Positions 1-44,453 of a stretch of DNA of 64,000 nt are shown here, piece after piece. The stretch is from assembly GCA_017449745.1 (NCBI GenBank), contig JAFTFD010000339.1, positions 21,866 to 85,865 on the forward strand, given 5' to 3'. Position 1 is the first letter of the stretch. Every line of letters starts with the position of its first letter. This DNA is from Lachnospiraceae bacterium. GTDB taxonomy: Bacteria; Bacillota; Clostridia; Lachnospirales; Lachnospiraceae. The translations under genes and the position numbers were made by a program. Under the pieces are notes generated by a model. It was not told the origin of the DNA. It was given only the letters and a program-made list of their open reading frames with translations, and did no database searches.

Positions 1-97
1 GTAATTGTAATTCATTTTCGTTCCTTTCTTGGATTAACCCTTTTTTAGTTTTAGTTCGTGGAATTTCAACAGTGCTTCCATTGTTAATTGCATTGTC

Positions 98-886
98 CTA
101 ATTGATGTAATACCGGATTGCTCTTTCTGCAGCCCTGATATTCAGGGGATGCGTTGAAGTCTCATGAAGCAAGATCAACCTGTCTCCCGGAAATATTCCA
201 TTTTGCTCATAAATACTGATCCGCTGCAGAGCATTCTCCAGATAGACCGGGTCATCCATCATACCAAGATGTTCAAGATAGACCTCTTTTCTCAATTTCA
301 CGTTCAGCATAGTAAAATCAGGATATATCGTTCCGATCCCTTTTAGATCTAATGGATACTCATATCGATAAGGAATGTGCAGTTTATTCAACATATCTGC
401 GATGAGTATTTCAGACTTTGACCTGACACGTTCCCCTTTGGCAGTGAAGAACTCCGGTGAATCCTCCATGAATTTTTTTCTTTCATATGGAACATTCTGC
501 CACTGATCTGCGAATTCCTTATCAGGTAACACTATAGGCGTAACCAGCTTTTGCCGGTCTTTAGATAAGTTTGTATAAACATCTTCCACCATTATTTCCG
601 GGATTCTTCTCTGCAACCCGTCAATAGCTTTCAGCTCTTTCTTAGCAGAATTAAGTATTCTCTCGTCGTATTTCTTTTGCGCCAGAGATTTGGCGAACAC
701 ATCCTGCTTCCGCAACAGATACTTATCTTTCTGCTGTTCTGTGCTGATGTAGTATTGAACATAACTCCCGTGGCTTCTGATATGCAGAGTGCCTTCCGGT
801 GCCTTACTCAATGCTCTTTCCTTCTCACGGATCAACAACTCGAGTGAAGCCTTCCGATTAAGTAATGACTCATAGATAGATGGCAA
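98..886 (-). CDS. Hypothetical 262-aa protein with a C-terminal restriction-endonuclease-fold-like signature (copy A)
   Basis: Long ORF with TTG start and an aggaga RBS. The C-terminal half has the spacing SKSE ... YPDF ... LEHLG ... LLHE, reminiscent of PD-(D/E)xK (TnsA/Vsr-style) nucleases. It lies in a low-GC region. The function is inference only. Confidence 0.7.
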   Translation of the reverse strand: MPSIYESLLNRKASLELLIREKERALSKAPEGTLHIRSHGSYVQYYISTEQQKDKYLLRKQDVFAKSLAQKKYDERILNSAKKELKAIDGLQRRIPEIMVEDVYTNLSKDRQKLVTPIVLPDKEFADQWQNVPYERKKFMEDSPEFFTAKGERVRSKSEILIADMLNKLHIPYRYEYPLDLKGIGTIYPDFTMLNVKLRKEVYLEHLGMMDDPVYLENALQRISIYEQNGIFPGDRLILLHETSTHPLNIRAAERAIRYYIN

Positions 887-2048
887 TTTACTATTTCTCC
901 TTTGTATTGATGAATATGGTTTTGTCGTTCCTTTCTTTATAATGTTCTCATATCATGATTGGTCTTTCTTAATATTGGCCTCTCATCAGATTGGCTTGCT
1001 TTATATTGGTCTCTCAACAAATTGAACTCCTTTTCAATAAATCCTCGCATGGTTTGATTACCTTTTGTTCTACAAGTTTCTCGTTAGATAGGCATTTTAT
1101 GGCGGGACACCGCTTATGTTCCCGCAAACTATCGCTCTTTCTTTTTGCATTCCAGTGGGAAGATAAGCCCTATACGGGCATTTGCTTAAATTGAGCACTC
1201 TTCTGTTGTGCGGGATATTTGTGTGTGCGCAGTGCCCACGGTTATTAGTGGATATACTAAATATATTTGTTGTGCGATAAAACAGCCATTTCATCAGCTG
1301 TACCTCCAAATGTTTTTATTCGTTCTCTTTTGTTGTGAATAGTAAAGTCCGAAAAAAAGCGGTCACGTGCAAACAGGTAGTCCTGTTATAAAATGTTGCT
1401 TAGGACTTTTTTCCTCGCGGTCATTTATCCCATTCCTTCTTTTCTTTGTTGTGACAACAAAAAATCCGAGGTTTTGAATTTACCTCTATGTCCCATCATT
1501 TCTTTGATATTTGTTGCGAGAGTCTTGAAATGGTCAGTTTTCCACACATCTGAATGCGGGAAATCCGTGGTCTTTGTCGCGCGCTGTAAAAATGCCAATT
1601 TATGTGCACAACCTGTTGCAACGATATTCGCCAATTATGTTGTGAATAGCTGTATGACCACTTGATTTCAGAGTATGGCAGAAAGAATTAGAGTCTGAAA
1701 TGAAAGGTATTAGAAACCTGATAGTTTAAAATGAGAGGTATTTGACTGCAGGGAGTTTAAAATGAAAGTATTAGACTGCAGGAAGTTCAGAATAAACGCT
1801 ATAAACGGGGATACGAATCAGAATTTTGTAATGTAGTGGATGAATAAGAAGTGCAGGCTAGTTGTAGGAAACAAGAAACACAAGCAGGAATAGGAAACAA
1901 GAAATACACAAAACATTAGTTAAGTTATACAAACAAGAAAAGACAAACAACGAAATAGCCGAAAAAGATATGGCATCTGGACCGAATCTCCGGCTCAGAT
2001 ATTGCTCATTTTAAACCAAACATGAAAACAAAATCAAGAACCGCAGCC

Positions 2049-2079
2049 AAAAAAGTGCCGCACCTCACGGTGCGGCACT
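2049..2079 (-). terminator. Intrinsic terminator downstream of pckA (copy A)
   Basis: Mirror of 41832..41862: GC-rich stem agtgccgcacc/ggtgcggcact followed by a T-tract on the coding strand. Confidence 0.8.
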
Positions 2080-2228
2080 TTGCATCTTGCATTATTCTGC
2101 GATGACCCAATCAGCATTCAGATGATATCTGTATTCAATTGATATCTGTACTCAGATGATATCCGAATTCTCATTTATCTGTATTCAGATGCTATCCGAA
2201 TTCAAATCAGGTCTGGGCCGGGTTCAGA

Positions 2229-3842
2229 TCAGATCTGAGGGCCTGCAGCGACGAGAGCCTTACCAGCCTCGTTGCCTTCATACTTCTTGAAGTTCTTGAC
2301 GAATCTCTGAGCAAGATCCTGAGCCTTTGCATCCCATTCTGCAGCATCTGCATATGTGTCGCGAGGATCAAGGATACCTGTGTCAACGCCCGGAAGCTCT
2401 GTAGGAACCTCGAAATCAAATACAGGGATCTTCTTTGTAGGAGCCTTGTTGACATCGCCGTTCAGGATAGCGTCGATGATGCCGCGGGTATCCTTAATGG
2501 AGATACGCTTGCCGGTTCCGTTCCAGCCTGTGTTGACGAGGTAAGCCTTTGCGCCGACCTTCTCCATCTTCTTGACAAGCTCCTCTGCATACTTTGTAGG
2601 ATGCAGCTCAAGGAATGCCTGGCCGAAGCAAGCGGAGAATGTAGGTGTGGGCTCAGTGATGCCGCGCTCTGTTCCTGCAAGCTTTGCTGTGAAGCCGGAC
2701 AGGAAATAGTACTTGGTCTGCTCAGGTGTCAGGATGGAGACCGGAGGCAGTACGCCGAAAGCATCAGCGGACAGGAAGATAACGTTCTGAGCATCCGGAC
2801 CAGCGGATACAGGGCGAACCTTCTTGACGATGTTCTCGATGTGCTCGATCGGATAGGAAACACGTGTGTTCTCTGTCACGCTCTTGTCAGCGAAATCGAT
2901 CTTGCCTTCTGCATCAACAGTAACGTTCTCAAGAAGAGCGTCACGTCTGATTGCATTGTAGATATCGGGCTCGGAATCCTTGTCAAGGTTGATAACCTTA
3001 GCATAGCAGCCGCCCTCGAAGTTGAAGACGCCATTGTCGTCCCAGCCGTGCTCGTCATCGCCGATGAGGAGTCTCTTGGGATCTGTAGACAGTGTTGTCT
3101 TACCTGTGCCGGACAGACCGAAGAAGATTGCTGTGTTCTCGCCGTTCATATCTGTGTTTGCAGAGCAATGCATGGAAGCGATGCCCTTCAGCGGCAGATA
3201 GTAGTTCATCATGGAGAACATACCCTTCTTCATCTCGCCGCCGTACCATGTGTTCAGGATGACCTGCTCACGGCTGGTTGTGTTGAAGGCTACGCATGTC
3301 TCGGAGTTAAGGCCATAATCCTTGTAGTTCTCTACCTTAGCCTTGGAAGCTGTGTAGACAACGAAATCAGGCTCGAAGTTCTCAAGCTCTTCTGCTGTGG
3401 GCTGGATGAACATGTTCTTAACAAAGTGTGCCTGCCATGCAACTTCCATGATGAAGCGGACAGCCATACGTGTGTCAGCGTTTGCACCGCAGAAAGCATC
3501 CATGACGAACAGTCTCTTGCCGGAGAGCTCCTTCTGAGCAAGAGCCTTCATAGCTGCCCATGTCTCCTCGCTCATCGGGTGGTTGTCGTTCTTGTACTCA
3601 TCAGTCGTCCACCAGACCGTATCCTTGGAGTTCTCATCCATAACGATGTACTTGTCCTTAGGGGAACGGCCAGTGTAGATACCTGTCATGACGTTGACAG
3701 CACCGAGCTCTGTCTCGACGCCCTTCTCATAGCCTTCCTGCTCGGGCTTCATCTCTTCCTCATAAAGGAACTCATAGGAAGGATTGTAGACGATCTCAGT
3801 AGCGCCTGTGATGCCATACTTAGTTAAATCAATCTTTGCCAT
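2229..3842 (-). CDS. pckA: Phosphoenolpyruvate carboxykinase (ATP) (copy A)
   Basis: 537 aa with the kinase-1a loop [11 protein letters not shown]. Length and overall sequence are typical of ATP-dependent PEPCK. Confidence 0.95.
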
Positions 3843-4087
3843 CGTACGTTAACCTCTTTCTTGTAATTGATATATGGTTGATACGTTAAACTAACATAAC
3901 TGTGCATACTCCTAGTCTTTTTAACATATTTGACACTAAAAATCAATATCCGCAGCCTTTTCCGACGTGGAAAAACATCGAAACTGTTATTTTTTTAACA
4001 TTCGCTCTCTGCCACAGTCAGCAACTGCCTGCACCTGTGCCGCACGGCAATCCGCGCAAGCTTCTGCTTCACAGCAAAAGCCACTGC

Positions 4088-5263
4088 CTACGCCTGCGCC
4101 GAACCAGTGATCCGCGCGAGAACCTCTGCGTCGCAGTAGAAGCGGCAGCTCGACATTCTCACAGGATTTGCCGAAACTGTATCGTAAGCCCGTCTCAGCA
4201 CCTCTTCCGGAACAGAGATGCCGGGGAACGCTTTTTCCATAAAGCCGCAGAAGTCGTTCACATCCGTAAAACCTGCTGCCTCCAGTACCGCGCTGCGGTC
4301 TTCTTCCGGCATTTCTTTCAGGAATCCGGTGAGAAAATACCCGCAAGCCATACCGTGCGGCATGTGAAGGTCATAGGTCACGGTGTAACTGAGCGCATGC
4401 GGAATGCTGGTGCCAGTCTGTGCGATGGCGATCCCCGCAAAAGTCGACGCTCTCATGAGGCGCGCAGCAGTCTCCTCTCCGGCTGCAGCAGTATTTTCTG
4501 CTGAGGCTGCCGTCTCACTTGCCGCAACAGCTGCGCCTTCCGCCTCACTGCAGCCCGCCCTTAATGCGCTGCATCCACCTGGCAGCAGTAGATCCTTGCA
4601 GGAGCTCCAGATCCGAAGGCCTGCCAGGGCCGCTGCTTTACTGTAGTCATCCGCTGCTTTTGATTCGTAGCTCTCGATCATGTGCGCAAGGGCGTCGACC
4701 GCCGTGTTGGTGATAATGGACTGCGGCGCATTCGCAAGATACTTGCCGTCGACCAGTGCGAGCTTCGGGAAGATCCTGTGGGGGATCGATGCTTTTGTTT
4801 TCTTTTCATGCCGTGTCAGGACGCTGACGCCTGTCACTTCCGATCCTGTGCCGCAGGTCGTCGGGACCGCCACCACATCGAGCGAGCGGGTCGGAAGCTC
4901 TCCGTTATACAGGTCCTCTGCCAGGATCTCTGGCCTGTACATCAGGAATGCGATCGCCTTGGCCGCATCCATAGCGGAGCCTCCGCCGATTCCGATCACA
5001 AAATCAGCGGCCTGCTCCTTTCCGTAGATCGCTCCTTTGACTACCGTTTCCACGGAAGGATTCTCTTCGATCTCAGCGAAATGGCACCACGCAGTGCCAT
5101 TGTCCTCAAGAACCTGCGTCACATCTGCGAGCGCCCCGCATTTTTCCGCCGAATGCCTGCCTGTAACGATCAACGCCTTTGTGCCGCAGGATGAGAGATC
5201 TGCGGCATGTTTTTTAACACAGTCTTTTTCATCAAAAACCCTTGTCGGCATGTAAAATTTCAT
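4088..5263 (-). CDS. Iron-containing alcohol dehydrogenase family protein (copy A)
   Basis: 391 aa with the GGGSAMDAAKAIA motif and a His-rich metal-site region (IPHALSY ... HGMACG). It carries an Ala-rich low-complexity insert. Confidence 0.88.
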   Translation of the reverse strand: MKFYMPTRVFDEKDCVKKHAADLSSCGTKALIVTGRHSAEKCGALADVTQVLEDNGTAWCHFAEIEENPSVETVVKGAIYGKEQAADFVIGIGGGSAMDAAKAIAFLMYRPEILAEDLYNGELPTRSLDVVAVPTTCGTGSEVTGVSVLTRHEKKTKASIPHRIFPKLALVDGKYLANAPQSIITNTAVDALAHMIESYESKAADDYSKAAALAGLRIWSSCKDLLLPGGCSALRAGCSEAEGAAVAASETAASAENTAAAGEETAARLMRASTFAGIAIAQTGTSIPHALSYTVTYDLHMPHGMACGYFLTGFLKEMPEEDRSAVLEAAGFTDVNDFCGFMEKAFPGISVPEEVLRRAYDTVSANPVRMSSCRFYCDAEVLARITGSAQA

Positions 5264-5376
5264 AAGAGGTCTCCTTTGTAATACGCTGCTCCACTGCGGA
5301 GCCGGTTTGAATTACTGTACTTTCCCGACTCCATTTCATTATATATAAAGGCTGCCGGATGTGCTAGAATAGCAGC

Positions 5377-5970
5377 ATGAAAATATGGATCACAAGACAC
5401 GGACAGACAAACCTGAATAAAGCGCGCCTCATGCAGGGCCTGACGGACGAGCCGCTCAACGAGACCGGCCTGGAACAGGCCAGGCAAACGCGCGCCCTGC
5501 TGGAGGAAACACACCCCGGCATCGTTTTTGACGCAGTCTACGCCAGCCCCCTGAAAAGGGCCATCGTCACCGGCTCCATTATCGGAAATGTTCCCGAGGA
5601 TCAGATCATCCGCGATGAGAGGATCATCGAGGCTGACTTCGGGCGGTATGAAAAAAAATGCTACTGGCTGGTCGGCCCGCGCATGACTTTGTACTGGGGA
5701 TTTCCGGAGTATTTTCCTGCACCGTCTACAGTTGAGACGACAGAGCAGATGATCCGGCGCGCACACGGGTTCCTTCGGGAGTTGGAGCAGAAAGATTACG
5801 AGAACGTACTGGTCGCCTGCCACGGCGGCATCATTCGCGCCCTCACCGGTTATCTGGAGGATGCGCCCAGAGGCTATATCTGGAGGCCGCGCCCTCACAA
5901 CTGTGAAGTCCGCATCTACGAATCCTCCGGCGGAAAGCACCGTTTTCTGGAGAAAATCCAGCAGACATAA
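5377..5970 (+). CDS. Histidine phosphatase (phosphoglycerate mutase-like) family protein (copy A)
   Basis: 197 aa with the N-terminal catalytic RHG motif (ITRHGQT) and a second His in VACHGG. Confidence 0.88.
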   Translation: MKIWITRHGQTNLNKARLMQGLTDEPLNETGLEQARQTRALLEETHPGIVFDAVYASPLKRAIVTGSIIGNVPEDQIIRDERIIEADFGRYEKKCYWLVGPRMTLYWGFPEYFPAPSTVETTEQMIRRAHGFLRELEQKDYENVLVACHGGIIRALTGYLEDAPRGYIWRPRPHNCEVRIYESSGGKHRFLEKIQQT

Positions 5971-6055
5971 GGGAGTTCTATCAGCGATCAAATGACAGAA
6001 AAGGCAGAAAAGCATGCCGCGCCTGCACGACATGCTCTTCTGCCTTTTACTATAT

Positions 6056-7837
6056 TTATTTTATTGACCTGTAGAACTTCTGCAGTACAAAGAAGGCGGG
6101 TTTCTTATATTTCTTGTCCGGTGAGAGCAGGCCCTTTCTGTTGTAATACCCTTGGATCATGCTGGTTCGTCTGGGACATCTGAAGTCGTACAGGATCCAC
6201 GGTGTCATTCCCTTTACGTAGGGGATGTCCTTCAGCGTTTCGATCTGTTTTTCAAAAACATAAGTCTGGCAGTCCTCTGTGCCTTTGTCATAGATGGATC
6301 TGCGGTGGCCCGGCATAGCGTCCGCGCCGAACTCCGTCACGATGACCGGCTTGGAAGGATCGCTGTTCTCGAAGAGCTTTGTCAGCATGCCAAAATCCGG
6401 TGTGTACCAGCCCATATACTCGTTGAGGCCGATCACATCCAGATACTCCGCGAGCCTGTCCGCGATTGCCATCTCCTGATAGCTGACAAGGCACGCCGCT
6501 GATACGAGTCTCGTAGAATCCTCACGATGCGCGCACTCCGCGAGATTCTTCATGAATTCAAGTCTTTCGTCTGTGTCGGCATTCTCATTTCCGACGGACC
6601 AGATGATCACGCTGGCGCGGTTCCAGTCTCTGTTGATCAGCTCCAGGAGCTGGTTCTGCGCATCCTGATAGGTCGCCTCTCTGGTGAACCGGATCGCCCA
6701 GTAGACTGGGATCTCCTCCCACAGGAGGATCCCTTCCCTGTCCGCCAGCTGCGCCATCTCCTCGTTATGCGGATAGTGGGCAACACGCATGAAATTGCAT
6801 CCGAGCTCTTTTGCGATCCGGATGTTTTCAAGCCTTTCTTCCGTTGTCAGTCCTTTTCCATTCTCGACACTTTCCTCGTGGCAGCTGATCCCCTTCAGGA
6901 AGATCTGCTTTCCGTTCAGGAGAATATCGCGGCCCTCCACGCGGATCTCACGGAAGCCTACCTTGTCGGTAACTTTATCTTCTCCGCAGATCAGCTCTAC
7001 GTCATAAAGATAAGGATCCTGCGGAGACCAGAGCATGGGGGATGCCTCGATGACTGCCTCTCCCTTGCCCGCGCGGATATCGATCGTGTAATTGATCCCG
7101 AGCTCCGGAATAACAAGGGACGCCTTAGTATCACATTCCTGTGAAAGCGCGGCGCTCACACAGATCTTATCAAATTTCCCGTCTGGCACCAGCGCGATCC
7201 GGAACTGCCTGATAAAGACCTCCGGCACGCGGATCAGCTCGATATCCCTGTAAACACCGCCGTAATTAAACCAGTCCGTGTTTTCCGTCGGAACCTGCTC
7301 GGGGCGGCGGGTGCTGTCTGCCTGGAGGATGATCCTGTTCTCCGCATTGTCTTCCTGAAGGGCATCCGTGATCTCAAAATAAGCCGGGGTAGAGCCGCCT
7401 CTGTGCATGCCCAGATACTGTTTGTTCAAAAATACCCTGCAGATGTAGTTCACGCCGCCGAGTTTCAGAAAGATCCTCTCGCCCGTCGTTTTCTGCATTC
7501 TGAATTTACGCGTAAAAATCATGCTCCCATCGTACAGCAGATACCGCTCGCTCTGCGTGTTCCAGCAGCAGGGCAGCTGCATTGTCGGCCACTCGTCAAA
7601 AGAGTAATCGACCGGGACCGTATAGCCGTTCTTGTCATAGCGGCGCTCCTCGAACCAGTGCTGGCGGATGCAATTGTCATACTGGTCTACCGCGTAATGC
7701 CACAGGCCGTTCAGGGATTCCTTCCTGCGGAACCTGTCATAGAACATGTCTTTGACGGTTGCCTGCCTGGACTCATATTCGCTCAGATAATCTTCGAGGT
7801 TGATATCCGACACATTTTTCTGCTGATACTGTTTCAT
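6056..7837 (-). CDS. uidA: GH2 beta-glucuronidase (copy A)
   Basis: 593 aa with the acid/base motif WSVGNE, the nucleophile motif VTEFG, and an N-x-K-G glucuronate-recognition motif (YNRKG) near the C-terminus. Confidence 0.85.
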
Positions 7838-7903
7838 GGCACTCCTTTCTGAAAAGCCCGTACCTGCTCCTGTTCTTTGAAGGCGCTTCGTTATGGATGC
7901 GGG

Positions 7904-8362
7904 TCACTTTTTGCTGCATGCTGCGTTCGCTGCCTTCGCCGCCAGCGGCGTAAAAATAAAAGCAACGATGTAAAGAATGATATAAAGCGGAATAAATGTT
8001 GCGAAGAATGCAAAAATAAAGTCCGGTGCCTTGCGCACGTTAAAAATGGACAGCGGAAGCCCCACGCCGATGGTAAAGATAAGGCAGACCGGAAGGGATC
8101 CGACGAGATTTCCCGCAAGGCTCTGCGGATCAAGCTTGAACAGGCGTGCAAACCCGGCCTGGATCTTCTGTCCCGGAATCAGGATATTCAGAAGAAAAGC
8201 AAGGCAGAATCCAATAGCGATGTTCGCCAGAAGATTCGGCGTAAAGATCGCCTGCACGGGTGCTCCCGCAAGGAGCGCTGCCGAGACGGACATAACGATC
8301 GCCATCGGCAGATCGAGAACCAGATTAAAAAGAATGATCCATTTGAGACTTGGTTTTTGCAT
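7904..8362 (-). CDS. Small integral membrane protein (copy A)
   Basis: 152 aa with about 4 hydrophobic helices. An RBS-like aaaggtg precedes the ATG. Confidence 0.7.
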   Translation of the reverse strand: MQKPSLKWIILFNLVLDLPMAIVMSVSAALLAGAPVQAIFTPNLLANIAIGFCLAFLLNILIPGQKIQAGFARLFKLDPQSLAGNLVGSLPVCLIFTIGVGLPLSIFNVRKAPDFIFAFFATFIPLYIILYIVAFIFTPLAAKAANAACSKK

Positions 8363-8625
8363 AGTTTATCACCTTTTTCCTTTCCTGAATTACAAGGTCG
8401 GTCCGGGAATAGTTCCCGCCCGCCGGCTGCCCCGATCGCAGCCCGGTTTCAGTATAATAAAAAACCACAGGCACTTCAATGCCTGCGGTTTCTTATATGT
8501 ATATGATGCTAAGTTCAAAAGGCAGAAAAGCATGCTGCGCTCACACGAGCAGGCTTTTATACCTTTTGACCCCAATAACATGTATATTAATGGAAGATGG
8601 GGTAATTAAGCCGGATCTGTACCGA

Positions 8626-10989: not shown

Positions 10990-11237
10990 TTTTGACACTC
11001 TCCTTTTTGATACTACGCTGTACTGCGCCCGCCTGGTTCTTTCCAGGCAATGCTTTATTCCCTCAATTAGTCCGGATATCCGGCAGAATTATTGTGATTT
11101 CTTCTTTTGACCTTTATAATAATTATCATTATTTTCGCCCTCCTGTTCAATGTCTGACATGAAATGGGTGAATAAGTTTTGTATCATTTTCAAACCAAAT
11201 CAGGATCATTGCGTCGCTATTTGAGAGGTGCTGAAAT

Positions 11238-12329: not shown

Positions 12330-12420
12330 AGGATTGAAATCCTTCCTGTTATAGCGATAGAATTATATGACGCAAATAACACAAACAGATACAACCATCG
12401 TGTTGCAACAAGGAGTACAA

Positions 12421-31490: not shown

Positions 31491-31581
31491 TTGTACTCCT
31501 TGTTGCAACACGATGGTTGTATCTGTTTGTGTTATTTGCGTCATATAATTCTATCGCTATAACAGGAAGGATTTCAATCCT

Positions 31582-32673: not shown

Positions 32674-32921
32674 ATTTCAGCACCTCTCAAATAGCGACGC
32701 AATGATCCTGATTTGGTTTGAAAATGATACAAAACTTATTCACCCATTTCATGTCAGACATTGAACAGGAGGGCGAAAATAATGATAATTATTATAAAGG
32801 TCAAAAGAAGAAATCACAATAATTCTGCCGGATATCCGGACTAATTGAGGGAATAAAGCATTGCCTGGAAAGAACCAGGCGGGCGCAGTACAGCGTAGTA
32901 TCAAAAAGGAGAGTGTCAAAA

Positions 32922-35285: not shown

Positions 35286-35548
35286 TCGGTACAGATCCGG
35301 CTTAATTACCCCATCTTCCATTAATATACATGTTATTGGGGTCAAAAGGTATAAAAGCCTGCTCGTGTGAGCGCAGCATGCTTTTCTGCCTTTTGAACTT
35401 AGCATCATATACATATAAGAAACCGCAGGCATTGAAGTGCCTGTGGTTTTTTATTATACTGAAACCGGGCTGCGATCGGGGCAGCCGGCGGGCGGGAACT
35501 ATTCCCGGACCGACCTTGTAATTCAGGAAAGGAAAAAGGTGATAAACT

Positions 35549-36007
35549 ATGCAAAAACCAAGTCTCAAATGGATCATTCTTTTTAATCTGGTTCTCGATC
35601 TGCCGATGGCGATCGTTATGTCCGTCTCGGCAGCGCTCCTTGCGGGAGCACCCGTGCAGGCGATCTTTACGCCGAATCTTCTGGCGAACATCGCTATTGG
35701 ATTCTGCCTTGCTTTTCTTCTGAATATCCTGATTCCGGGACAGAAGATCCAGGCCGGGTTTGCACGCCTGTTCAAGCTTGATCCGCAGAGCCTTGCGGGA
35801 AATCTCGTCGGATCCCTTCCGGTCTGCCTTATCTTTACCATCGGCGTGGGGCTTCCGCTGTCCATTTTTAACGTGCGCAAGGCACCGGACTTTATTTTTG
35901 CATTCTTCGCAACATTTATTCCGCTTTATATCATTCTTTACATCGTTGCTTTTATTTTTACGCCGCTGGCGGCGAAGGCAGCGAACGCAGCATGCAGCAA
36001 AAAGTGA
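35549..36007 (+). CDS. Small integral membrane protein (copy B)
   Basis: Mirror of 7904..8362. Confidence 0.7.
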   Translation: MQKPSLKWIILFNLVLDLPMAIVMSVSAALLAGAPVQAIFTPNLLANIAIGFCLAFLLNILIPGQKIQAGFARLFKLDPQSLAGNLVGSLPVCLIFTIGVGLPLSIFNVRKAPDFIFAFFATFIPLYIILYIVAFIFTPLAAKAANAACSKK

Positions 36008-36073
36008 CCCGCATCCATAACGAAGCGCCTTCAAAGAACAGGAGCAGGTACGGGCTTTTCAGAAAGGAGTGCC

Positions 36074-37855
36074 ATGAAACAGTATCAGCAGAAAAATGTG
36101 TCGGATATCAACCTCGAAGATTATCTGAGCGAATATGAGTCCAGGCAGGCAACCGTCAAAGACATGTTCTATGACAGGTTCCGCAGGAAGGAATCCCTGA
36201 ACGGCCTGTGGCATTACGCGGTAGACCAGTATGACAATTGCATCCGCCAGCACTGGTTCGAGGAGCGCCGCTATGACAAGAACGGCTATACGGTCCCGGT
36301 CGATTACTCTTTTGACGAGTGGCCGACAATGCAGCTGCCCTGCTGCTGGAACACGCAGAGCGAGCGGTATCTGCTGTACGATGGGAGCATGATTTTTACG
36401 CGTAAATTCAGAATGCAGAAAACGACGGGCGAGAGGATCTTTCTGAAACTCGGCGGCGTGAACTACATCTGCAGGGTATTTTTGAACAAACAGTATCTGG
36501 GCATGCACAGAGGCGGCTCTACCCCGGCTTATTTTGAGATCACGGATGCCCTTCAGGAAGACAATGCGGAGAACAGGATCATCCTCCAGGCAGACAGCAC
36601 CCGCCGCCCCGAGCAGGTTCCGACGGAAAACACGGACTGGTTTAATTACGGCGGTGTTTACAGGGATATCGAGCTGATCCGCGTGCCGGAGGTCTTTATC
36701 AGGCAGTTCCGGATCGCGCTGGTGCCAGACGGGAAATTTGATAAGATCTGTGTGAGCGCCGCGCTTTCACAGGAATGTGATACTAAGGCGTCCCTTGTTA
36801 TTCCGGAGCTCGGGATCAATTACACGATCGATATCCGCGCGGGCAAGGGAGAGGCAGTCATCGAGGCATCCCCCATGCTCTGGTCTCCGCAGGATCCTTA
36901 TCTTTATGACGTAGAGCTGATCTGCGGAGAAGATAAAGTTACCGACAAGGTAGGCTTCCGTGAGATCCGCGTGGAGGGCCGCGATATTCTCCTGAACGGA
37001 AAGCAGATCTTCCTGAAGGGGATCAGCTGCCACGAGGAAAGTGTCGAGAATGGAAAAGGACTGACAACGGAAGAAAGGCTTGAAAACATCCGGATCGCAA
37101 AAGAGCTCGGATGCAATTTCATGCGTGTTGCCCACTATCCGCATAACGAGGAGATGGCGCAGCTGGCGGACAGGGAAGGGATCCTCCTGTGGGAGGAGAT
37201 CCCAGTCTACTGGGCGATCCGGTTCACCAGAGAGGCGACCTATCAGGATGCGCAGAACCAGCTCCTGGAGCTGATCAACAGAGACTGGAACCGCGCCAGC
37301 GTGATCATCTGGTCCGTCGGAAATGAGAATGCCGACACAGACGAAAGACTTGAATTCATGAAGAATCTCGCGGAGTGCGCGCATCGTGAGGATTCTACGA
37401 GACTCGTATCAGCGGCGTGCCTTGTCAGCTATCAGGAGATGGCAATCGCGGACAGGCTCGCGGAGTATCTGGATGTGATCGGCCTCAACGAGTATATGGG
37501 CTGGTACACACCGGATTTTGGCATGCTGACAAAGCTCTTCGAGAACAGCGATCCTTCCAAGCCGGTCATCGTGACGGAGTTCGGCGCGGACGCTATGCCG
37601 GGCCACCGCAGATCCATCTATGACAAAGGCACAGAGGACTGCCAGACTTATGTTTTTGAAAAACAGATCGAAACGCTGAAGGACATCCCCTACGTAAAGG
37701 GAATGACACCGTGGATCCTGTACGACTTCAGATGTCCCAGACGAACCAGCATGATCCAAGGGTATTACAACAGAAAGGGCCTGCTCTCACCGGACAAGAA
37801 ATATAAGAAACCCGCCTTCTTTGTACTGCAGAAGTTCTACAGGTCAATAAAATAA
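36074..37855 (+). CDS. uidA: GH2 beta-glucuronidase (copy B)
   Basis: Mirror of 6056..7837. Confidence 0.85.
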
Positions 37856-37940
37856 ATATAGTAAAAGGCAGAAGAGCATGTCGTGCAGGCGCGGCATGCT
37901 TTTCTGCCTTTTCTGTCATTTGATCGCTGATAGAACTCCC

Positions 37941-38534
37941 TTATGTCTGCTGGATTTTCTCCAGAAAACGGTGCTTTCCGCCGGAGGATTCGTAGATGCG
38001 GACTTCACAGTTGTGAGGGCGCGGCCTCCAGATATAGCCTCTGGGCGCATCCTCCAGATAACCGGTGAGGGCGCGAATGATGCCGCCGTGGCAGGCGACC
38101 AGTACGTTCTCGTAATCTTTCTGCTCCAACTCCCGAAGGAACCCGTGTGCGCGCCGGATCATCTGCTCTGTCGTCTCAACTGTAGACGGTGCAGGAAAAT
38201 ACTCCGGAAATCCCCAGTACAAAGTCATGCGCGGGCCGACCAGCCAGTAGCATTTTTTTTCATACCGCCCGAAGTCAGCCTCGATGATCCTCTCATCGCG
38301 GATGATCTGATCCTCGGGAACATTTCCGATAATGGAGCCGGTGACGATGGCCCTTTTCAGGGGGCTGGCGTAGACTGCGTCAAAAACGATGCCGGGGTGT
38401 GTTTCCTCCAGCAGGGCGCGCGTTTGCCTGGCCTGTTCCAGGCCGGTCTCGTTGAGCGGCTCGTCCGTCAGGCCCTGCATGAGGCGCGCTTTATTCAGGT
38501 TTGTCTGTCCGTGTCTTGTGATCCATATTTTCAT
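37941..38534 (-). CDS. Histidine phosphatase family protein (copy B)
   Basis: Mirror of 5377..5970. Confidence 0.88.
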   Translation of the reverse strand: MKIWITRHGQTNLNKARLMQGLTDEPLNETGLEQARQTRALLEETHPGIVFDAVYASPLKRAIVTGSIIGNVPEDQIIRDERIIEADFGRYEKKCYWLVGPRMTLYWGFPEYFPAPSTVETTEQMIRRAHGFLRELEQKDYENVLVACHGGIIRALTGYLEDAPRGYIWRPRPHNCEVRIYESSGGKHRFLEKIQQT

Positions 38535-38647
38535 GCTGCTATTCTAGCACATCCGGCAGCCTTTATATATAATGAAATGGAGTCGGGAAAGTACAGTAAT
38601 TCAAACCGGCTCCGCAGTGGAGCAGCGTATTACAAAGGAGACCTCTT

Positions 38648-39823
38648 ATGAAATTTTACATGCCGACAAGGGTTTTTGATGAAAAAGACTGTGTTAAAAA
38701 ACATGCCGCAGATCTCTCATCCTGCGGCACAAAGGCGTTGATCGTTACAGGCAGGCATTCGGCGGAAAAATGCGGGGCGCTCGCAGATGTGACGCAGGTT
38801 CTTGAGGACAATGGCACTGCGTGGTGCCATTTCGCTGAGATCGAAGAGAATCCTTCCGTGGAAACGGTAGTCAAAGGAGCGATCTACGGAAAGGAGCAGG
38901 CCGCTGATTTTGTGATCGGAATCGGCGGAGGCTCCGCTATGGATGCGGCCAAGGCGATCGCATTCCTGATGTACAGGCCAGAGATCCTGGCAGAGGACCT
39001 GTATAACGGAGAGCTTCCGACCCGCTCGCTCGATGTGGTGGCGGTCCCGACGACCTGCGGCACAGGATCGGAAGTGACAGGCGTCAGCGTCCTGACACGG
39101 CATGAAAAGAAAACAAAAGCATCGATCCCCCACAGGATCTTCCCGAAGCTCGCACTGGTCGACGGCAAGTATCTTGCGAATGCGCCGCAGTCCATTATCA
39201 CCAACACGGCGGTCGACGCCCTTGCGCACATGATCGAGAGCTACGAATCAAAAGCAGCGGATGACTACAGTAAAGCAGCGGCCCTGGCAGGCCTTCGGAT
39301 CTGGAGCTCCTGCAAGGATCTACTGCTGCCAGGTGGATGCAGCGCATTAAGGGCGGGCTGCAGTGAGGCGGAAGGCGCAGCTGTTGCGGCAAGTGAGACG
39401 GCAGCCTCAGCAGAAAATACTGCTGCAGCCGGAGAGGAGACTGCTGCGCGCCTCATGAGAGCGTCGACTTTTGCGGGGATCGCCATCGCACAGACTGGCA
39501 CCAGCATTCCGCATGCGCTCAGTTACACCGTGACCTATGACCTTCACATGCCGCACGGTATGGCTTGCGGGTATTTTCTCACCGGATTCCTGAAAGAAAT
39601 GCCGGAAGAAGACCGCAGCGCGGTACTGGAGGCAGCAGGTTTTACGGATGTGAACGACTTCTGCGGCTTTATGGAAAAAGCGTTCCCCGGCATCTCTGTT
39701 CCGGAAGAGGTGCTGAGACGGGCTTACGATACAGTTTCGGCAAATCCTGTGAGAATGTCGAGCTGCCGCTTCTACTGCGACGCAGAGGTTCTCGCGCGGA
39801 TCACTGGTTCGGCGCAGGCGTAG
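38648..39823 (+). CDS. Iron-containing alcohol dehydrogenase family protein (copy B)
   Basis: Mirror of 4088..5263. Confidence 0.88.
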   Translation: MKFYMPTRVFDEKDCVKKHAADLSSCGTKALIVTGRHSAEKCGALADVTQVLEDNGTAWCHFAEIEENPSVETVVKGAIYGKEQAADFVIGIGGGSAMDAAKAIAFLMYRPEILAEDLYNGELPTRSLDVVAVPTTCGTGSEVTGVSVLTRHEKKTKASIPHRIFPKLALVDGKYLANAPQSIITNTAVDALAHMIESYESKAADDYSKAAALAGLRIWSSCKDLLLPGGCSALRAGCSEAEGAAVAASETAASAENTAAAGEETAARLMRASTFAGIAIAQTGTSIPHALSYTVTYDLHMPHGMACGYFLTGFLKEMPEEDRSAVLEAAGFTDVNDFCGFMEKAFPGISVPEEVLRRAYDTVSANPVRMSSCRFYCDAEVLARITGSAQA

Positions 39824-40068
39824 GCAGTGGCTTTTGCTGTGAAGCAGAAGCTTGCGCGGATTGCCGTGCGGCACAGGTGCAGGCAGTTGCTGACTGTGGC
39901 AGAGAGCGAATGTTAAAAAAATAACAGTTTCGATGTTTTTCCACGTCGGAAAAGGCTGCGGATATTGATTTTTAGTGTCAAATATGTTAAAAAGACTAGG
40001 AGTATGCACAGTTATGTTAGTTTAACGTATCAACCATATATCAATTACAAGAAAGAGGTTAACGTACG

Positions 40069-41682
40069 ATGGCAAAGATTGATTTAACTAAGTATGGCAT
40101 CACAGGCGCTACTGAGATCGTCTACAATCCTTCCTATGAGTTCCTTTATGAGGAAGAGATGAAGCCCGAGCAGGAAGGCTATGAGAAGGGCGTCGAGACA
40201 GAGCTCGGTGCTGTCAACGTCATGACAGGTATCTACACTGGCCGTTCCCCTAAGGACAAGTACATCGTTATGGATGAGAACTCCAAGGATACGGTCTGGT
40301 GGACGACTGATGAGTACAAGAACGACAACCACCCGATGAGCGAGGAGACATGGGCAGCTATGAAGGCTCTTGCTCAGAAGGAGCTCTCCGGCAAGAGACT
40401 GTTCGTCATGGATGCTTTCTGCGGTGCAAACGCTGACACACGTATGGCTGTCCGCTTCATCATGGAAGTTGCATGGCAGGCACACTTTGTTAAGAACATG
40501 TTCATCCAGCCCACAGCAGAAGAGCTTGAGAACTTCGAGCCTGATTTCGTTGTCTACACAGCTTCCAAGGCTAAGGTAGAGAACTACAAGGATTATGGCC
40601 TTAACTCCGAGACATGCGTAGCCTTCAACACAACCAGCCGTGAGCAGGTCATCCTGAACACATGGTACGGCGGCGAGATGAAGAAGGGTATGTTCTCCAT
40701 GATGAACTACTATCTGCCGCTGAAGGGCATCGCTTCCATGCATTGCTCTGCAAACACAGATATGAACGGCGAGAACACAGCAATCTTCTTCGGTCTGTCC
40801 GGCACAGGTAAGACAACACTGTCTACAGATCCCAAGAGACTCCTCATCGGCGATGACGAGCACGGCTGGGACGACAATGGCGTCTTCAACTTCGAGGGCG
40901 GCTGCTATGCTAAGGTTATCAACCTTGACAAGGATTCCGAGCCCGATATCTACAATGCAATCAGACGTGACGCTCTTCTTGAGAACGTTACTGTTGATGC
41001 AGAAGGCAAGATCGATTTCGCTGACAAGAGCGTGACAGAGAACACACGTGTTTCCTATCCGATCGAGCACATCGAGAACATCGTCAAGAAGGTTCGCCCT
41101 GTATCCGCTGGTCCGGATGCTCAGAACGTTATCTTCCTGTCCGCTGATGCTTTCGGCGTACTGCCTCCGGTCTCCATCCTGACACCTGAGCAGACCAAGT
41201 ACTATTTCCTGTCCGGCTTCACAGCAAAGCTTGCAGGAACAGAGCGCGGCATCACTGAGCCCACACCTACATTCTCCGCTTGCTTCGGCCAGGCATTCCT
41301 TGAGCTGCATCCTACAAAGTATGCAGAGGAGCTTGTCAAGAAGATGGAGAAGGTCGGCGCAAAGGCTTACCTCGTCAACACAGGCTGGAACGGAACCGGC
41401 AAGCGTATCTCCATTAAGGATACCCGCGGCATCATCGACGCTATCCTGAACGGCGATGTCAACAAGGCTCCTACAAAGAAGATCCCTGTATTTGATTTCG
41501 AGGTTCCTACAGAGCTTCCGGGCGTTGACACAGGTATCCTTGATCCTCGCGACACATATGCAGATGCTGCAGAATGGGATGCAAAGGCTCAGGATCTTGC
41601 TCAGAGATTCGTCAAGAACTTCAAGAAGTATGAAGGCAACGAGGCTGGTAAGGCTCTCGTCGCTGCAGGCCCTCAGATCTGA
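40069..41682 (+). CDS. pckA: Phosphoenolpyruvate carboxykinase (ATP) (copy B)
   Basis: Mirror of 2229..3842. Confidence 0.95.
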
Positions 41683-41707
41683 TCTGAACCCGGCCCAGAC
41701 CTGATTT

Positions 41708-41807
41708 GAATTCGGATAGCATCTGAATACAGATAAATGAGAATTCGGATATCATCTGAGTACAGATATCAATTGAATACAGATATCATCTGAATGCTGA
41801 TTGGGTC
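41708..41807. repeat. Three degenerate ~33-bp tandem units between the pckA stop and its terminator (mirror copy at 2104..2203)
   Basis: The units start at about 41708, 41741 and 41775 and begin gaattcggata(g/t)catctga(a/g)tacagata. The motif atcatctga recurs with a 33-nt period. Confidence 0.75.
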
Positions 41808-41831
41808 ATCGCAGAATAATGCAAGATGCAA

Positions 41832-41862
41832 AGTGCCGCACCGTGAGGTGCGGCACTTTTTT
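41832..41862 (+). terminator. Intrinsic terminator downstream of pckA (copy B)
   Basis: Sequence agtgccgcacc-gtga-ggtgcggcact followed by tttttt. Confidence 0.8.
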
Positions 41863-42125
41863 GGCTGCGGTTCTTGATTTTGTTTTCATGTTTGGTTTAA
41901 AATGAGCAATATCTGAGCCGGAGATTCGGTCCAGATGCCATATCTTTTTCGGCTATTTCGTTGTTTGTCTTTTCTTGTTTGTATAACTTAACTAATGTTT
42001 TGTGTATTTCTTGTTTCCTATTCCTGCTTGTGTTTCTTGTTTCCTACAACTAGCCTGCACTTCTTATTCATCCACTACATTACAAAATTCTGATTCGTAT
42101 CCCCGTTTATAGCGTTTATTCTGAA

Positions 42126-42217
42126 CTTCCTGCAGTCTAATACTTTCATTTTAAACTCCCTGCAGTCAAATACCTCTCATTTTAAACTATCAGGTTTCTA
42201 ATACCTTTCATTTCAGA
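42126..42217. repeat. Three tandem ~31-bp degenerate repeats in the ORF-free low-GC region (mirror copy at 1694..1785)
   Basis: The three units are cttcctgcagtctaatactttcattttaaa, ctccctgcagtcaaatacctctcattttaaa and ctatcaggtttctaatacctttcatttcaga. Confidence 0.75.
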
Positions 42218-43024
42218 CTCTAATTCTTTCTGCCATACTCTGAAATCAAGTGGTCATACAGCTATTCACAACATAATTGGCGAATATCGTTGCAACAGGT
42301 TGTGCACATAAATTGGCATTTTTACAGCGCGCGACAAAGACCACGGATTTCCCGCATTCAGATGTGTGGAAAACTGACCATTTCAAGACTCTCGCAACAA
42401 ATATCAAAGAAATGATGGGACATAGAGGTAAATTCAAAACCTCGGATTTTTTGTTGTCACAACAAAGAAAAGAAGGAATGGGATAAATGACCGCGAGGAA
42501 AAAAGTCCTAAGCAACATTTTATAACAGGACTACCTGTTTGCACGTGACCGCTTTTTTTCGGACTTTACTATTCACAACAAAAGAGAACGAATAAAAACA
42601 TTTGGAGGTACAGCTGATGAAATGGCTGTTTTATCGCACAACAAATATATTTAGTATATCCACTAATAACCGTGGGCACTGCGCACACACAAATATCCCG
42701 CACAACAGAAGAGTGCTCAATTTAAGCAAATGCCCGTATAGGGCTTATCTTCCCACTGGAATGCAAAAAGAAAGAGCGATAGTTTGCGGGAACATAAGCG
42801 GTGTCCCGCCATAAAATGCCTATCTAACGAGAAACTTGTAGAACAAAAGGTAATCAAACCATGCGAGGATTTATTGAAAAGGAGTTCAATTTGTTGAGAG
42901 ACCAATATAAAGCAAGCCAATCTGATGAGAGGCCAATATTAAGAAAGACCAATCATGATATGAGAACATTATAAAGAAAGGAACGACAAAACCATATTCA
43001 TCAATACAAAGGAGAAATAGTAAA

Positions 43025-43813
43025 TTGCCATCTATCTATGAGTCATTACTTAATCGGAAGGCTTCACTCGAGTTGTTGATCCGTGAGAAGGAAAGAGCAT
43101 TGAGTAAGGCACCGGAAGGCACTCTGCATATCAGAAGCCACGGGAGTTATGTTCAATACTACATCAGCACAGAACAGCAGAAAGATAAGTATCTGTTGCG
43201 GAAGCAGGATGTGTTCGCCAAATCTCTGGCGCAAAAGAAATACGACGAGAGAATACTTAATTCTGCTAAGAAAGAGCTGAAAGCTATTGACGGGTTGCAG
43301 AGAAGAATCCCGGAAATAATGGTGGAAGATGTTTATACAAACTTATCTAAAGACCGGCAAAAGCTGGTTACGCCTATAGTGTTACCTGATAAGGAATTCG
43401 CAGATCAGTGGCAGAATGTTCCATATGAAAGAAAAAAATTCATGGAGGATTCACCGGAGTTCTTCACTGCCAAAGGGGAACGTGTCAGGTCAAAGTCTGA
43501 AATACTCATCGCAGATATGTTGAATAAACTGCACATTCCTTATCGATATGAGTATCCATTAGATCTAAAAGGGATCGGAACGATATATCCTGATTTTACT
43601 ATGCTGAACGTGAAATTGAGAAAAGAGGTCTATCTTGAACATCTTGGTATGATGGATGACCCGGTCTATCTGGAGAATGCTCTGCAGCGGATCAGTATTT
43701 ATGAGCAAAATGGAATATTTCCGGGAGACAGGTTGATCTTGCTTCATGAGACTTCAACGCATCCCCTGAATATCAGGGCTGCAGAAAGAGCAATCCGGTA
43801 TTACATCAATTAG
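43025..43813 (+). CDS. Hypothetical 262-aa protein with a C-terminal restriction-endonuclease-fold-like signature (copy B)
   Basis: Mirror of 98..886. Confidence 0.7.
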   Translation: MPSIYESLLNRKASLELLIREKERALSKAPEGTLHIRSHGSYVQYYISTEQQKDKYLLRKQDVFAKSLAQKKYDERILNSAKKELKAIDGLQRRIPEIMVEDVYTNLSKDRQKLVTPIVLPDKEFADQWQNVPYERKKFMEDSPEFFTAKGERVRSKSEILIADMLNKLHIPYRYEYPLDLKGIGTIYPDFTMLNVKLRKEVYLEHLGMMDDPVYLENALQRISIYEQNGIFPGDRLILLHETSTHPLNIRAAERAIRYYIN

Positions 43814-43895
43814 GACAATGCAATTAACAATGGAAGCACTGTTGAAATTCCACGAACTAAAACTAAAAAAGGGTTAATCCAAGAAAGGAACGAAA

Positions 43896-44453
43896 ATGAA
43901 TTACAATTACTTTAAAAACTATATTATTGATAAAGCACAGATGATCGGCGAGGATATTAGTTATTATGAAACAGCGGAAACAGAACCGGAAGTAGTGACT
44001 GAAACGGCATCGGATATGCTTTCCCATATACTTGAATTTACTATTCATTCAAGCGACGTATATAGTCCGGCCATCAGTACAACTGTGCGTATAGATCTTG
44101 TTGAATTGTTTCAGGATCTGCAATATGAAAAAAATGATCAGATCGTCAGAAAGATCGATGCATTGTTTAATTCAATGGAAACAACAGGATGTAAACTTGG
44201 AACGGAAGCATATATTAAAAGGTTGAGCGGGGTTGAACTGGAACGATATAATGCGCTCAAAGAACTAAGAGCTGAGATAGCAGAAAAAGAAGGCGTGCGT
44301 CTATACATGATCTTCGATAACAGGACACTTGCGGAGATGAGCCGCCTGAAACCTGAATCGAAAGCAGCAATGCAGACTATCCATGGAGTTGGAGCCGTAA
44401 AGATGGCAAAATACGGAGAACAGTTTTTTGACCTTCTCAGGGAATTGGCATAA
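43896..44453 (+). CDS. HRDC domain-containing protein
   Basis: 185 aa. The C-terminal ~70 aa match the HRDC pattern (LERYNALKELRAEIAEKEGVRLYMIFDNRTLAEMSRLKPESKAAMQTIHGVGAVKMAKYGEQF). I did not recognise the N-terminal ~110 aa. Its first 15 nt lie inside the palindrome and are mirrored at 1..15. Confidence 0.8.
   Translation: MNYNYFKNYIIDKAQMIGEDISYYETAETEPEVVTETASDMLSHILEFTIHSSDVYSPAISTTVRIDLVELFQDLQYEKNDQIVRKIDALFNSMETTGCKLGTEAYIKRLSGVELERYNALKELRAEIAEKEGVRLYMIFDNRTLAEMSRLKPESKAAMQTIHGVGAVKMAKYGEQFFDLLRELA

Follow-up and report, generated by a model that had tools for sequence, protein, structure and literature searches.

De Bruijn graphs treat a sequence and its reverse complement together, and k-mers with self-reverse-complementary suffixes cause inverted loops and palindromic unitigs in them. 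This has been described by Rahman & Medvedev (2022, Genome Res, PMC9528984), who found such palindromic unitigs to be fully covered by SPAdes and MEGAHIT contigs. In the case of ABySS they were split, and with Minia this happened to a minority of them. Palindromes that span a whole contig have also been reported as assembly errors, both in SPAdes isolate assemblies of M. bovis (81 contigs, PMC9455707) and for single cells of cyanobacteria (assemblies in bioRxiv 10.1101/2023.06.06.543983).

Other known inverted structures are real molecules. The inverted chimeras of multiple displacement amplification (MDA) have their junction at a short self-complementary sequence and form long palindromic molecules (Lasken & Stockwell 2007, PMC1855051; Pacasus, PMC6218980). 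Tandem inversion duplication in Salmonella (Kugelberg et al. 2010) and ODIRA in yeast (PMC4689423) start at short palindromes and have inverted arms of tens of kilobases.

Here we describe a large palindrome in a window of DNA from a Lachnospiraceae bacterium, where "the window" is the whole stretch of 64,000 nucleotides that was analysed. Like the palindromic unitigs of PMC9528984, it has a hinge k-mer with a self-reverse-complementary (k−1)-suffix, and the product equals its own reverse complement. The Minia-based Logan contigs stop at this hinge, which can be compared to the Minia splitting in that study. The palindromes there were truly in the reference, however, while the native palindrome in our window measures only 32 nt and the multi-kilobase arms would stem from a lost continuation. 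Arms of at least 22 kb are also unusual in this comparison, as is survival to a large final k, for which carry-over between assembly rounds would be needed.

In the M. bovis and cyanobacterial contigs, as here, genes were doubled as identical reverse complements, and the authors judged these contigs to be artefacts and removed them. Those reports came without a hinge sequence, whereas the hinge here is a native terminator palindrome, and its native junction is documented elsewhere. MDA chimeras arise at low frequency and at many sites, usually with an intervening deletion, but the window has one junction, no deletion and no evidence of amplification. The recovered products of tandem inversion duplication and ODIRA show a pair of junctions, and deletion has usually remodelled their palindromic centres. 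The window has a perfect centre and no visible second junction, and no independent sample shows the structure.

Structure of the palindrome

Bases 1..21955 and 21956..43910 are exact reverse complements of each other, with 0 mismatches over 21,955 positions in a direct comparison of the arms. The axis lies exactly at 21955|21956, where there is neither a spacer nor an adapter remnant, and neighbouring axes extend for at most 2 matching bases. An earlier reading of this DNA, made from the sequence only, had already described exact arms without a spacer, and with this single axis that description holds.

The same reading put the length of the palindrome at 43.9 kb. Within the window the palindrome is indeed perfect, but it reaches position 1, so that its outer limit is set by the edge of the window or contig. 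This means that position 43910 is simply the mirror of base 1, and that 43.9 kb is a lower bound. The gene of an HRDC-domain protein (43896..44453) crosses position 43910, and three contigs of the same species (L031, L033, L034) align across it free of gaps, at 99.7-100% identity. Similarly, 43911..64000 had been called a unique flank. It is unique in the window, but only since its mirror would fall to the left of the window. There is no second junction that returns to native order within 21,955 nt of the axis, which is where the window ends.

The axis halves a perfect palindrome of 32 nt, AAAAAAGAAGCGCACCGGTGCGCTTCTTTTTT (21940..21971), which is native sequence. This is a terminator-like match: a bidirectional intrinsic terminator, made up of an A-run, a GC stem and a T-run, that follows a gene for a protein of 159 aa. 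The hairpin has 13-14 pairs, at about −19 kcal/mol. In native genomes, the terminator is found between the 159-aa gene and a convergent GHMP-kinase gene. The next perfect palindrome in the 42,029 nt of single-copy sequence measures 16 nt, and none except the hinge is longer. The chance of a random break falling on the 32-nt palindrome is about 1e-3 or less.

The loop of the hairpin comes in more than one allele. The perfect CCGG is present in the window and in a minority of contigs (3/10), while contig L007 has the imperfect GCGG.

Same-species contigs

The window was compared with contigs of the same Lachnospiraceae species, taken from ENA and from Logan assemblies. These stem from several metagenomes or samples, at 98.9-100% nucleotide identity. 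Logan contigs are Minia-based with k = 31, and they are built in such a way that no 31-mer occurs in them twice.

Such a check against relatives had been suggested in the sequence-only reading. Eight contigs (L001, L002, L003, L004, L005/L006, L007, L009 and L028) match the window only up to 21940/21971, and past the palindrome all eight enter unique DNA, on the side of the GHMP kinase, pyrD/pyrK, murein ligase, ddl and aconitase genes. The 10 kb of this native downstream sequence has no match anywhere in the window. Two further contigs, both k = 31 Logan contigs with the perfect CCGG loop, break off inside the palindrome: L008, with 100% identity to the window, 31 nt into it, and L010 30 nt into it. 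None of these contigs folds back.

L004 has the same CCGG allele as the window, and diverges from it exactly after the T-run. The identical 32 nt are followed by native sequence, with no fold-back, in both L004 and L029. L007, the k = 31 Logan contig with the imperfect loop, reads through the palindrome. Among the contigs listed for two protein look-ups, there is no fold-back either. The pattern was also not found in IMG/VR. It was not found in the JGI metagenomes either, but this is uninformative, as that collection is without the species.

The native continuation is strain-variable and fragile, and it breaks several assemblies. Two haplotypes begin directly after the T-run, and there are indels of roughly 100-200 nt. 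Identity is 89-97% past the palindrome, versus 99-99.95% upstream of it, with the exception of L001/L002, which show no difference over the 584 nt aligned downstream. At the site of the palindrome, L002 contains an N-gap with a second half-terminator. L004, L009 and L028 end 57-106 nt past it.

K-mer content and graph walk

It is instructive to look at how little separates the fold-back from the native genome. For k = 21 to 33, 0 of the k-mers that span the junction are absent from L004, a native contig. Exactly one is absent when k is raised to 34, CAAAAAAGAAGCGCACCGGTGCGCTTCTTTTTTG (21939..21972), which is its own reverse complement. This 34-mer is the only sequence that tells the two apart.

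For odd k up to 33, the 32-nt palindrome is at least k−1 long, and a k-mer there does have its own reverse complement as successor. A toy doubled de Bruijn graph was walked for k = 21-33, with and without the native continuation. If the continuation is left out, the walk delivers a perfect palindrome that is identical to positions 17000..26911 of the window. If it is present, the walk halts at a G/T branch at the edge of the palindrome. From k = 35 upwards there is no fold-back, and with the imperfect GCGG loop of L007 the walk reads straight through.

Proposed origin

These comparisons argue strongly, although they do not prove, that the palindrome is an artefact and not a biological feature, and that it would be absent from the organism. 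The sequence-only reading had ranked a sequencing or assembly artefact first, and this is supported by the relatives that continue natively past the hinge. The most likely cause is an inverted loop in the de Bruijn graph at the terminator palindrome, to which we give a probability of around 0.6; a chimeric molecule primed by the hairpin is less likely. Such a loop was not among the causes named earlier, and it is the one that fits best.

The native order would be pckA, and further on guaA, asnS, the FKBP-like lipoprotein, the 159-aa gene and the 32-nt terminator. After this would come a short strain-variable spacer, and then the convergent GHMP-kinase, pyrD, pyrK and further genes. In a graph with k ≤ 33, where a k-mer's end falls in the self-complementary stretch of the terminator, its own reverse complement is a permitted successor. 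Should the true continuation be missing, thin, or divided among strain variants and pruned, then the sole walk left would lead through the hairpin and, on the opposite strand, back along the unitig it came from. The assembler would then write the unitig followed by its reverse complement, giving a palindrome without spacer and without mismatches. The identity of the arms over 21,955/21,955 positions is to be expected in this case, because one unitig would have been written twice.

A 32-nt palindrome loops only at k ≤ 33, and contigs of at least 64 kb need a far larger k, so a carry-over from a small-k or local assembly must be assumed. Assemblers that work with multiple k pass their small-k contigs to later rounds, and the junction may in this way survive to the final large k. 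The parent assembly would probably have had a stage with k ≤ 33 in which the native branch was lost. The sample labels, 'XIEF21', suggest a ruminant gut-microbiome study (PMC8199421) in which MEGAHIT and IDBA-UD were applied to Illumina reads. For an overlap-based long-read parent assembly the graph mechanism is inapplicable, and a fold-back molecule, made in vitro or in vivo, is then needed.

More generally, a native perfect palindrome of at least k−1, followed by a strain-variable stretch, would suffice for a metagenome assembler to write a unitig twice.

Alternative explanations

The fold-back may instead have been made in the tube, which we regard as possible but rather unlikely. Here a 3' single-stranded end that finishes in the terminator would snap back on the 14-bp stem and be extended, either by phi29 during MDA or during end repair and fill-in. 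This would yield real palindromic molecules that are subsequently sequenced and assembled. The position of the axis on the stable terminator hairpin fits this well, and it agrees just as well with the native junction that all other assemblies have. More than 85% of MDA chimeras are inverted, with most junctions primed on 2-21 nt of complementarity (PMC1855051), and palindromic reads after amplification are frequent enough that dedicated tools were written for them (PMC6218980, PMC13265396). There is however no sign that the sample was amplified. In addition, native reads would normally outweigh a single chimeric molecule when a consensus is built, and a nearby quasi-palindrome that is longer than the hinge (28336..28399, with 31-nt arms that are 94% complementary) did not fold. 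Snapping back also needs no perfect loop, and yet the window has the minority perfect allele, which only the graph model requires.

A real and very recent inverted duplication in the cell is improbable. In this case the terminator hairpin would have let the leading strand snap back, much like in the symmetric precursor proposed for tandem inversion duplications in Salmonella or in ODIRA in yeast, and at least 22 kb would have been duplicated in inverted orientation. Arms with zero divergence do fit a very recent event, and so does the axis, since the junction is at a short inverted repeat. Short inverted repeats are the accepted initiation sites for such events according to PMC4689423, with reference to Kugelberg et al. 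(2010, Genetics 185:65). But none of the same-species contigs above has the structure, not even L004, with its shared loop allele, or L008, from an identical strain. Also, the genes that natively come after the terminator are absent from the window, no second junction is seen over the 21,955 nt given above, and the graph artefact accounts for every feature without any new molecule. Bacteria with SbcCD rapidly cleave or delete long perfect palindromes that have next to no spacer, and the symmetric precursors that have been proposed are too unstable for recovery; both count against a duplication in the cell.

If the fold-back were real after all, against long odds, it would be a fresh inverted duplication, symmetric and 22 kb or more in size (possibly 42 kb or more), made by snap-back of a nascent strand at a perfectly palindromic bidirectional terminator and caught before its centre was remodelled. 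Tandem inversion duplications have been postulated to pass through an unstable symmetric precursor, and this would then be a direct sighting of it in nature, in a ruminant-gut Lachnospiraceae.

Long-read artefacts that arise at random ends are very improbable. These include a missed SMRTbell adapter, or a nanopore complement strand that trails its template through the pore. Nanopore data commonly contain reads with such inverted duplications (PMC9054137), and these leave spacer-less fold-backs after polishing. Yet the ends of fragments are essentially random, and the axis is centred exactly on a 32-nt perfect palindrome that has no equal in 42 kb. The clean junction, with no trace of adapter or spacer, also speaks against it, as do the 0 indels relative to Illumina-based contigs over 11.7 kb. 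The missed hairpin adapter and the fold-back long read, which had been proposed earlier among the types of artefact, fit poorly with an axis on this palindrome.

The covalently closed hairpin end of a linear replicon, likewise raised earlier, matches in geometry alone, in that a hairpin end, when sequenced round, also comes out as a perfect palindrome, and it is effectively excluded: genomes of the same species run on through the site without a break, into housekeeping genes, the hinge is a canonical intrinsic terminator and not a telomere-resolution site, and Pfam finds no protelomerase, ResT-like, phage or plasmid replication genes among the proteins of the 42 kb beside the axis.

Gene content

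The right arm (21956..43910) is the native chromosome segment, and is collinear with same-species contigs. For example, L025/L026 are collinear with 21940..35235 at 99.5% identity, and L031 with 33896..45588 at 99.7%. The left arm (1..21955) is the mirror copy, which the window start truncates within the mirror image of the HRDC gene.

The right arm holds the genes for the 159-aa protein, an FKBP/trigger-factor-like lipoprotein, asnS, an NlpC/P60 protein, guaA and DUF6198. It also holds a 664-aa BD-FAE-like protein, an AraC regulator, a GH2, a 152-aa ORF and a second GH2, and in addition a His-phosphatase, an Fe-ADH, pckA and a 262-aa ORF. The earlier count of some 15 doubled genes, with asnS, guaA and pckA among them, was right. 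The genes were however said to be head-to-head, and the innermost pair, the two copies of the 159-aa gene, is convergent, and so tail-to-tail at the axis. The left-arm copy (21439..21918, + strand) is the last gene before the axis, and the right-arm copy is found at 21993..22472 on the − strand. The 159-aa protein is membrane-anchored and has no Pfam match, and exactly the same protein is present on 20 other contigs.

Of asnS, guaA, pckA and the remaining genes of the arms, there is almost certainly just one copy each in the organism, with the usual neighbours following. The contig doubles about 15 or more genes, which would inflate estimates of duplication or 'contamination' as well as counts of paralogues. 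The fold-back also conceals the true adjacency to the GHMP-kinase/pyrD side.

The native segment continues in 43911..64000, the mirror of which would fall outside the window. This part contains the genes for the HRDC protein, a GDSL lipase, a GH77 amylomaltase, a MoxR ATPase, DUF58 and a stand-alone C-terminal half of GMP synthase, and furthermore BlaI/BlaR1-M23, an MFS transporter and two ECF sigma factors. Two same-species contigs, L031 and L032, run collinear with it, at 99.4-99.8% identity.

Extent of the palindrome

The two arms were compared directly: bases 1..21955 match the reverse complement of 21956..43910 with 0 mismatches over 21,955 positions. Around 21955|21956, extension from neighbouring axes halts at 2 bases or fewer. 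Without mismatches and without a competing axis, the palindrome does exist in the file. It has no spacer, just as the sequence-only reading had described, and chance cannot account for it. Its presence in the sequence record is confirmed, but the genome very probably lacks it. The mirror symmetry in GC skew and ORFs follows from the palindrome by construction.

Two related claims did not hold up, namely that the palindrome ends at 43910 and that 43911..64000 is a unique flank. The left arm reaches window position 1, which means that 43910 is merely the mirror image of the window start, and the flank is unique only in that its mirror falls outside the window. An HRDC-domain gene (43896..44453) crosses 43910, and three public contigs of the same species (L031, L033 and L034) also align across it, without a gap and at 99.7-100% identity. 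The 43.9 kb is therefore a lower bound, and a biological outer boundary at 43910 is rejected.

The element at the axis

The innermost gene of each arm encodes a membrane-anchored protein of 159 amino acids, to which no function is assigned. The left copy (21439..21918, plus strand) and the right copy (21993..22472, minus strand) are convergent. Between them, at 21940..21971, lies AAAAAAGAAGCGCA-CCGG-TGCGCTTCTTTTTT. This element is laid out like a bidirectional intrinsic terminator: an A-run, then a GC-rich stem around a loop of 4 nt, then a T-run. The computed hairpin has a stem of 13-14 bp, with a folding energy near -19 kcal/mol. Because the CCGG loop is self-complementary, the element is also a perfect palindrome of 32 nt. 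Rfam, at gathering thresholds, finds no structured RNA at the axis, and ARAGORN no tRNA.

Among perfect palindromes whose arms reach 7 nt or more, the 42,029 nt of single-copy window sequence hold just one other, and it measures 16 nt. The axis thus coincides with the sole long perfect palindrome, which is not a chance event. The breakpoint of the fold-back falls inside this native element, and whatever its cause, the fold-back is templated by the terminator hairpin.

Other fold-back seeds were considered and rejected: there is no second long perfect palindrome, and a longer but imperfect one after guaA, at 28336..28399 (mirror 15512-15575), did not fold. It has 31-nt arms that are 94% complementary, a 2-nt spacer and A/T runs, and is probably another bidirectional terminator. 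Just past it, 28396-28532 varies between strains, with a 65-nt repeated piece in contig L028.

The loop at 21954-21957 is itself polymorphic between strains (window, L001-L010 and L028). CCGG, which makes the palindrome perfect, is carried by the window and by 3 of 10 other contigs (L004, L008 and L010). The commonest loop is GCGG, in 6 of 10; in L002 the sequence is GCGCCGCGGTGCGC, and its T-run carries a T>G change. The contigs with the perfect allele, three in all, stop within 57 nt of the terminator; four of the six with GCGG extend about 680 nt or more past it.

The native junction

The exact 159-aa protein is encoded by 20 other public metagenome contigs, and the exact AsnS protein by 6, with partial overlap between the sets. 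Their DNA is 98.4-100% identical to the window (100% for L008 and L034), so they belong to the same species. None of the contigs that encode the exact 159-aa, AsnS or HRDC proteins, at lengths up to 58.6 kb, is palindromic.

Every contig's match ends at 21940 in one arm or at 21971 in the other, the outer edges of the 32-nt element. Past the terminator there is unique DNA in L001, L002, L003, L004, L005/L006, L007, L009 and L028. Relatives thus join the terminator to different sequence, which the sequence-only reading had named as speaking against a real palindrome. Downstream in the native order, a short spacer leads into a convergent gene set: a GHMP kinase, dihydroorotate dehydrogenase (PyrD together with its Fe-S subunit), an acyltransferase, dihydroorotase, a Mur ligase, D-Ala-D-Ala ligase and aconitase. 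No part of these 10 kb was found anywhere in the window. L004, which has the same CCGG allele, matches the window for 53 nt beyond the stop codon, through the T-run. After that L004 reads TCTGCGG..., whereas the window reads GATTCAT..., the complement of the window sequence that went before.

The fold-back junction pattern has 0 matches in IMG/VR. It also has 0 in JGI metagenomes, but this is uninformative since the native palindrome is missing there too.

The native continuation is the sort of sequence that is prone to loss. Two haplotypes start directly after the T-run, indels of about 100-200 nt occur, and identity is 89-97%, versus 99-99.95% upstream. An exception is the pair L001/L002, identical over the 584 nt aligned downstream. 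L004, L009 and L028 stop 57-106 nt past the palindrome. In the L002 scaffold (XIEF21-1_SAMN15829977 scaffold_957, 10540-10560), 10 N's some 40 nt past the terminator mark a gap, after which the terminator's right half appears a second time and the spacer goes on in the other haplotype. Apparently, mixed strains were scaffolded wrongly at this same troublesome site.

Origin of the fold-back

For k up to 33, all junction k-mers are found in native contig L004 when both its strands are counted. A single new one appears at k=34, CAAAAAAGAAGCGCACCGGTGCGCTTCTTTTTTG at 21939..21972, where the native counterpart is CAAAAAAGAAGCGCACCGGTGCGCTTCTTTTTTT. This means that a de Bruijn graph with k≤33 holds the fold-back walk without needing a chimeric read.

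A toy doubled graph was built from one arm ending at the palindrome. If the native continuation is omitted, the unique walk at k=21, 29, 31 and 33 passes the hairpin and retraces itself, and it spells a perfect palindrome that equals window 17000..26911. Once the native continuation is added, the walk halts at a G/T branch at the palindrome edge. No fold-back occurs at k≥35, and the imperfect GCGG loop strain (L007) gives straight read-through. The public Logan contigs, for which k is 31 and in which no 31-mer recurs (PMC12424806), show the same contrast between alleles as the toy graph: L008 and L010, with the perfect CCGG, stop 31 and 30 nt into the palindrome, while L007, with the imperfect allele, runs 746 nt past it.

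An artefact of some kind is highly likely, and we put the probability that it is an inverted loop in a de Bruijn graph at about 0.6. The parent assembly would have included a stage with k≤33 in which the native branch was pruned or absent, and the fold-back junction would then have been carried on into later, larger k. By design, multi-k assemblers such as MEGAHIT, IDBA and SPAdes reuse earlier contigs. Inverted loops arise from k-mers with a suffix equal to its own reverse complement (Rahman & Medvedev 2022, PMC9528984), which is a formal description of the artefact proposed here. Where such a loop is the sole edge, the doubled graph has a palindromic unitig; in tests by those authors, these were fully covered by SPAdes and MEGAHIT contigs and split by ABySS (PMC9528984). 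Among SPAdes isolate assemblies 81 whole-contig palindromes were discarded as assembly errors (PMC9455707), and the same has been reported for single-cell assemblies (bioRxiv 10.1101/2023.06.06.543983).

The main competitor, though a good deal less probable, is that hairpin-primed chimeric molecules were made in vitro, by MDA or fill-in. This fits the position of the axis equally well, and inverted forms make up more than 85% of MDA chimeras, with priming on 2-21 nt of complementarity (PMC1855051). Such chimeras need no perfect loop allele however, yet the window carries it (3/10 contigs); they should also lose to native reads by majority, and there is no sign of amplification.

A real snap-back inverted duplication of the TID/ODIRA type has the right geometry, but is improbable: independent contigs lend it no support, a second junction is not seen within the window, and it would have to persist as a spacer-less palindrome of over 40 kb. 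SbcCD cleavage and replication slippage strongly counter-select long palindromes of this kind. Less probable again is a random-end long-read artefact, from a missed adapter or template-complement reads (PMC9054137), which leaves unexplained why the axis sits on the sole long palindrome, and shows in neither spacer nor indel noise. A hairpin telomere of a linear replicon is excluded, since relatives have an uninterrupted native junction and the hinge is a terminator.

If the inverted loop in the assembly graph is indeed the cause, the parent contig is expected to be palindromic over its whole length, which would be 84 kb or more, with its centre at 21955|21956. The window would then illustrate neatly how a perfect terminator of 32 nt can lead an assembler to write one unitig twice.

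Gene content and other observations

In a protein scan of GTDB species representatives, the 159-aa protein has its closest matches in Lachnospiraceae MAGs, none of them above 70% identity. Judging by the sample labels 'XIEF21' and 'LIUQ22' and by the MEGAHIT names with 'k141', the public contigs come from ruminant gut metagenomes. Xie et al. 2021 assembled Illumina reads with MEGAHIT and IDBA-UD (PMC8199421), and we infer a link between the window and that project.

The genes are ordinary chromosomal ones: asnS, guaA, pckA, two GH2, Fe-ADH, GH77, MoxR, BlaI/BlaR1, sigma factors and an MFS transporter. No protelomerase, phage, plasmid or replication genes are among the window proteins; a phage or plasmid end at the axis was rejected for lack of such genes, and because relatives read through. 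ARAGORN found no tRNA in the window, and Rfam no family.

guaA (26687-28291) is called at 534 aa in the window and L028, and at 513 aa in L002 and L004. In L001 (4181-5722) it is split into 332 and 173 aa; a frameshift or a misassembly of this MEGAHIT contig is the probable cause. In addition to this full-length gene, 51091-52080 encodes a stand-alone 329-aa protein with only the ATP-pyrophosphatase and C-terminal dimerisation part of GMP synthase, lacking the glutamine amidotransferase domain; it is conserved in L032.

From pckA to a 262-aa ORF runs a 1.3-kb low-GC stretch (41683-43024, mirror 887-2228) with no ORF of 100 aa or more and no Rfam match. GC is about 39% over 42001-44000, versus about 53% in the surroundings. 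The stretch holds three degenerate repeat arrays, of 17/33-nt units (41704-41802) and of roughly 31-nt units (42113-42213 and 42887-42980). The 262-aa protein (43025-43813) has no Pfam match.

The spacer between the GDSL-lipase and GH77 genes has a 41-nt tandem repeat (45533-45675, 3.3 copies, 94% matches). L031-L033 are shorter here by 82 nt, or two units, so the copy number varies between strains.

Finally, GC is lowered to 0.43-0.48 over 52000-60000, which may be an accessory island. Encoded here are a repressor of the BlaI type and a BlaR1-like M56 sensor that carries a fused M23 peptidase (52599-55270), as well as two sigma factors of the ECF type (55515-55997 and 56738-57310). The stretch also has genes for an HTH protein and a BrnT-like toxin fragment, and a tandem repeat of 64 nt (59252-59391).
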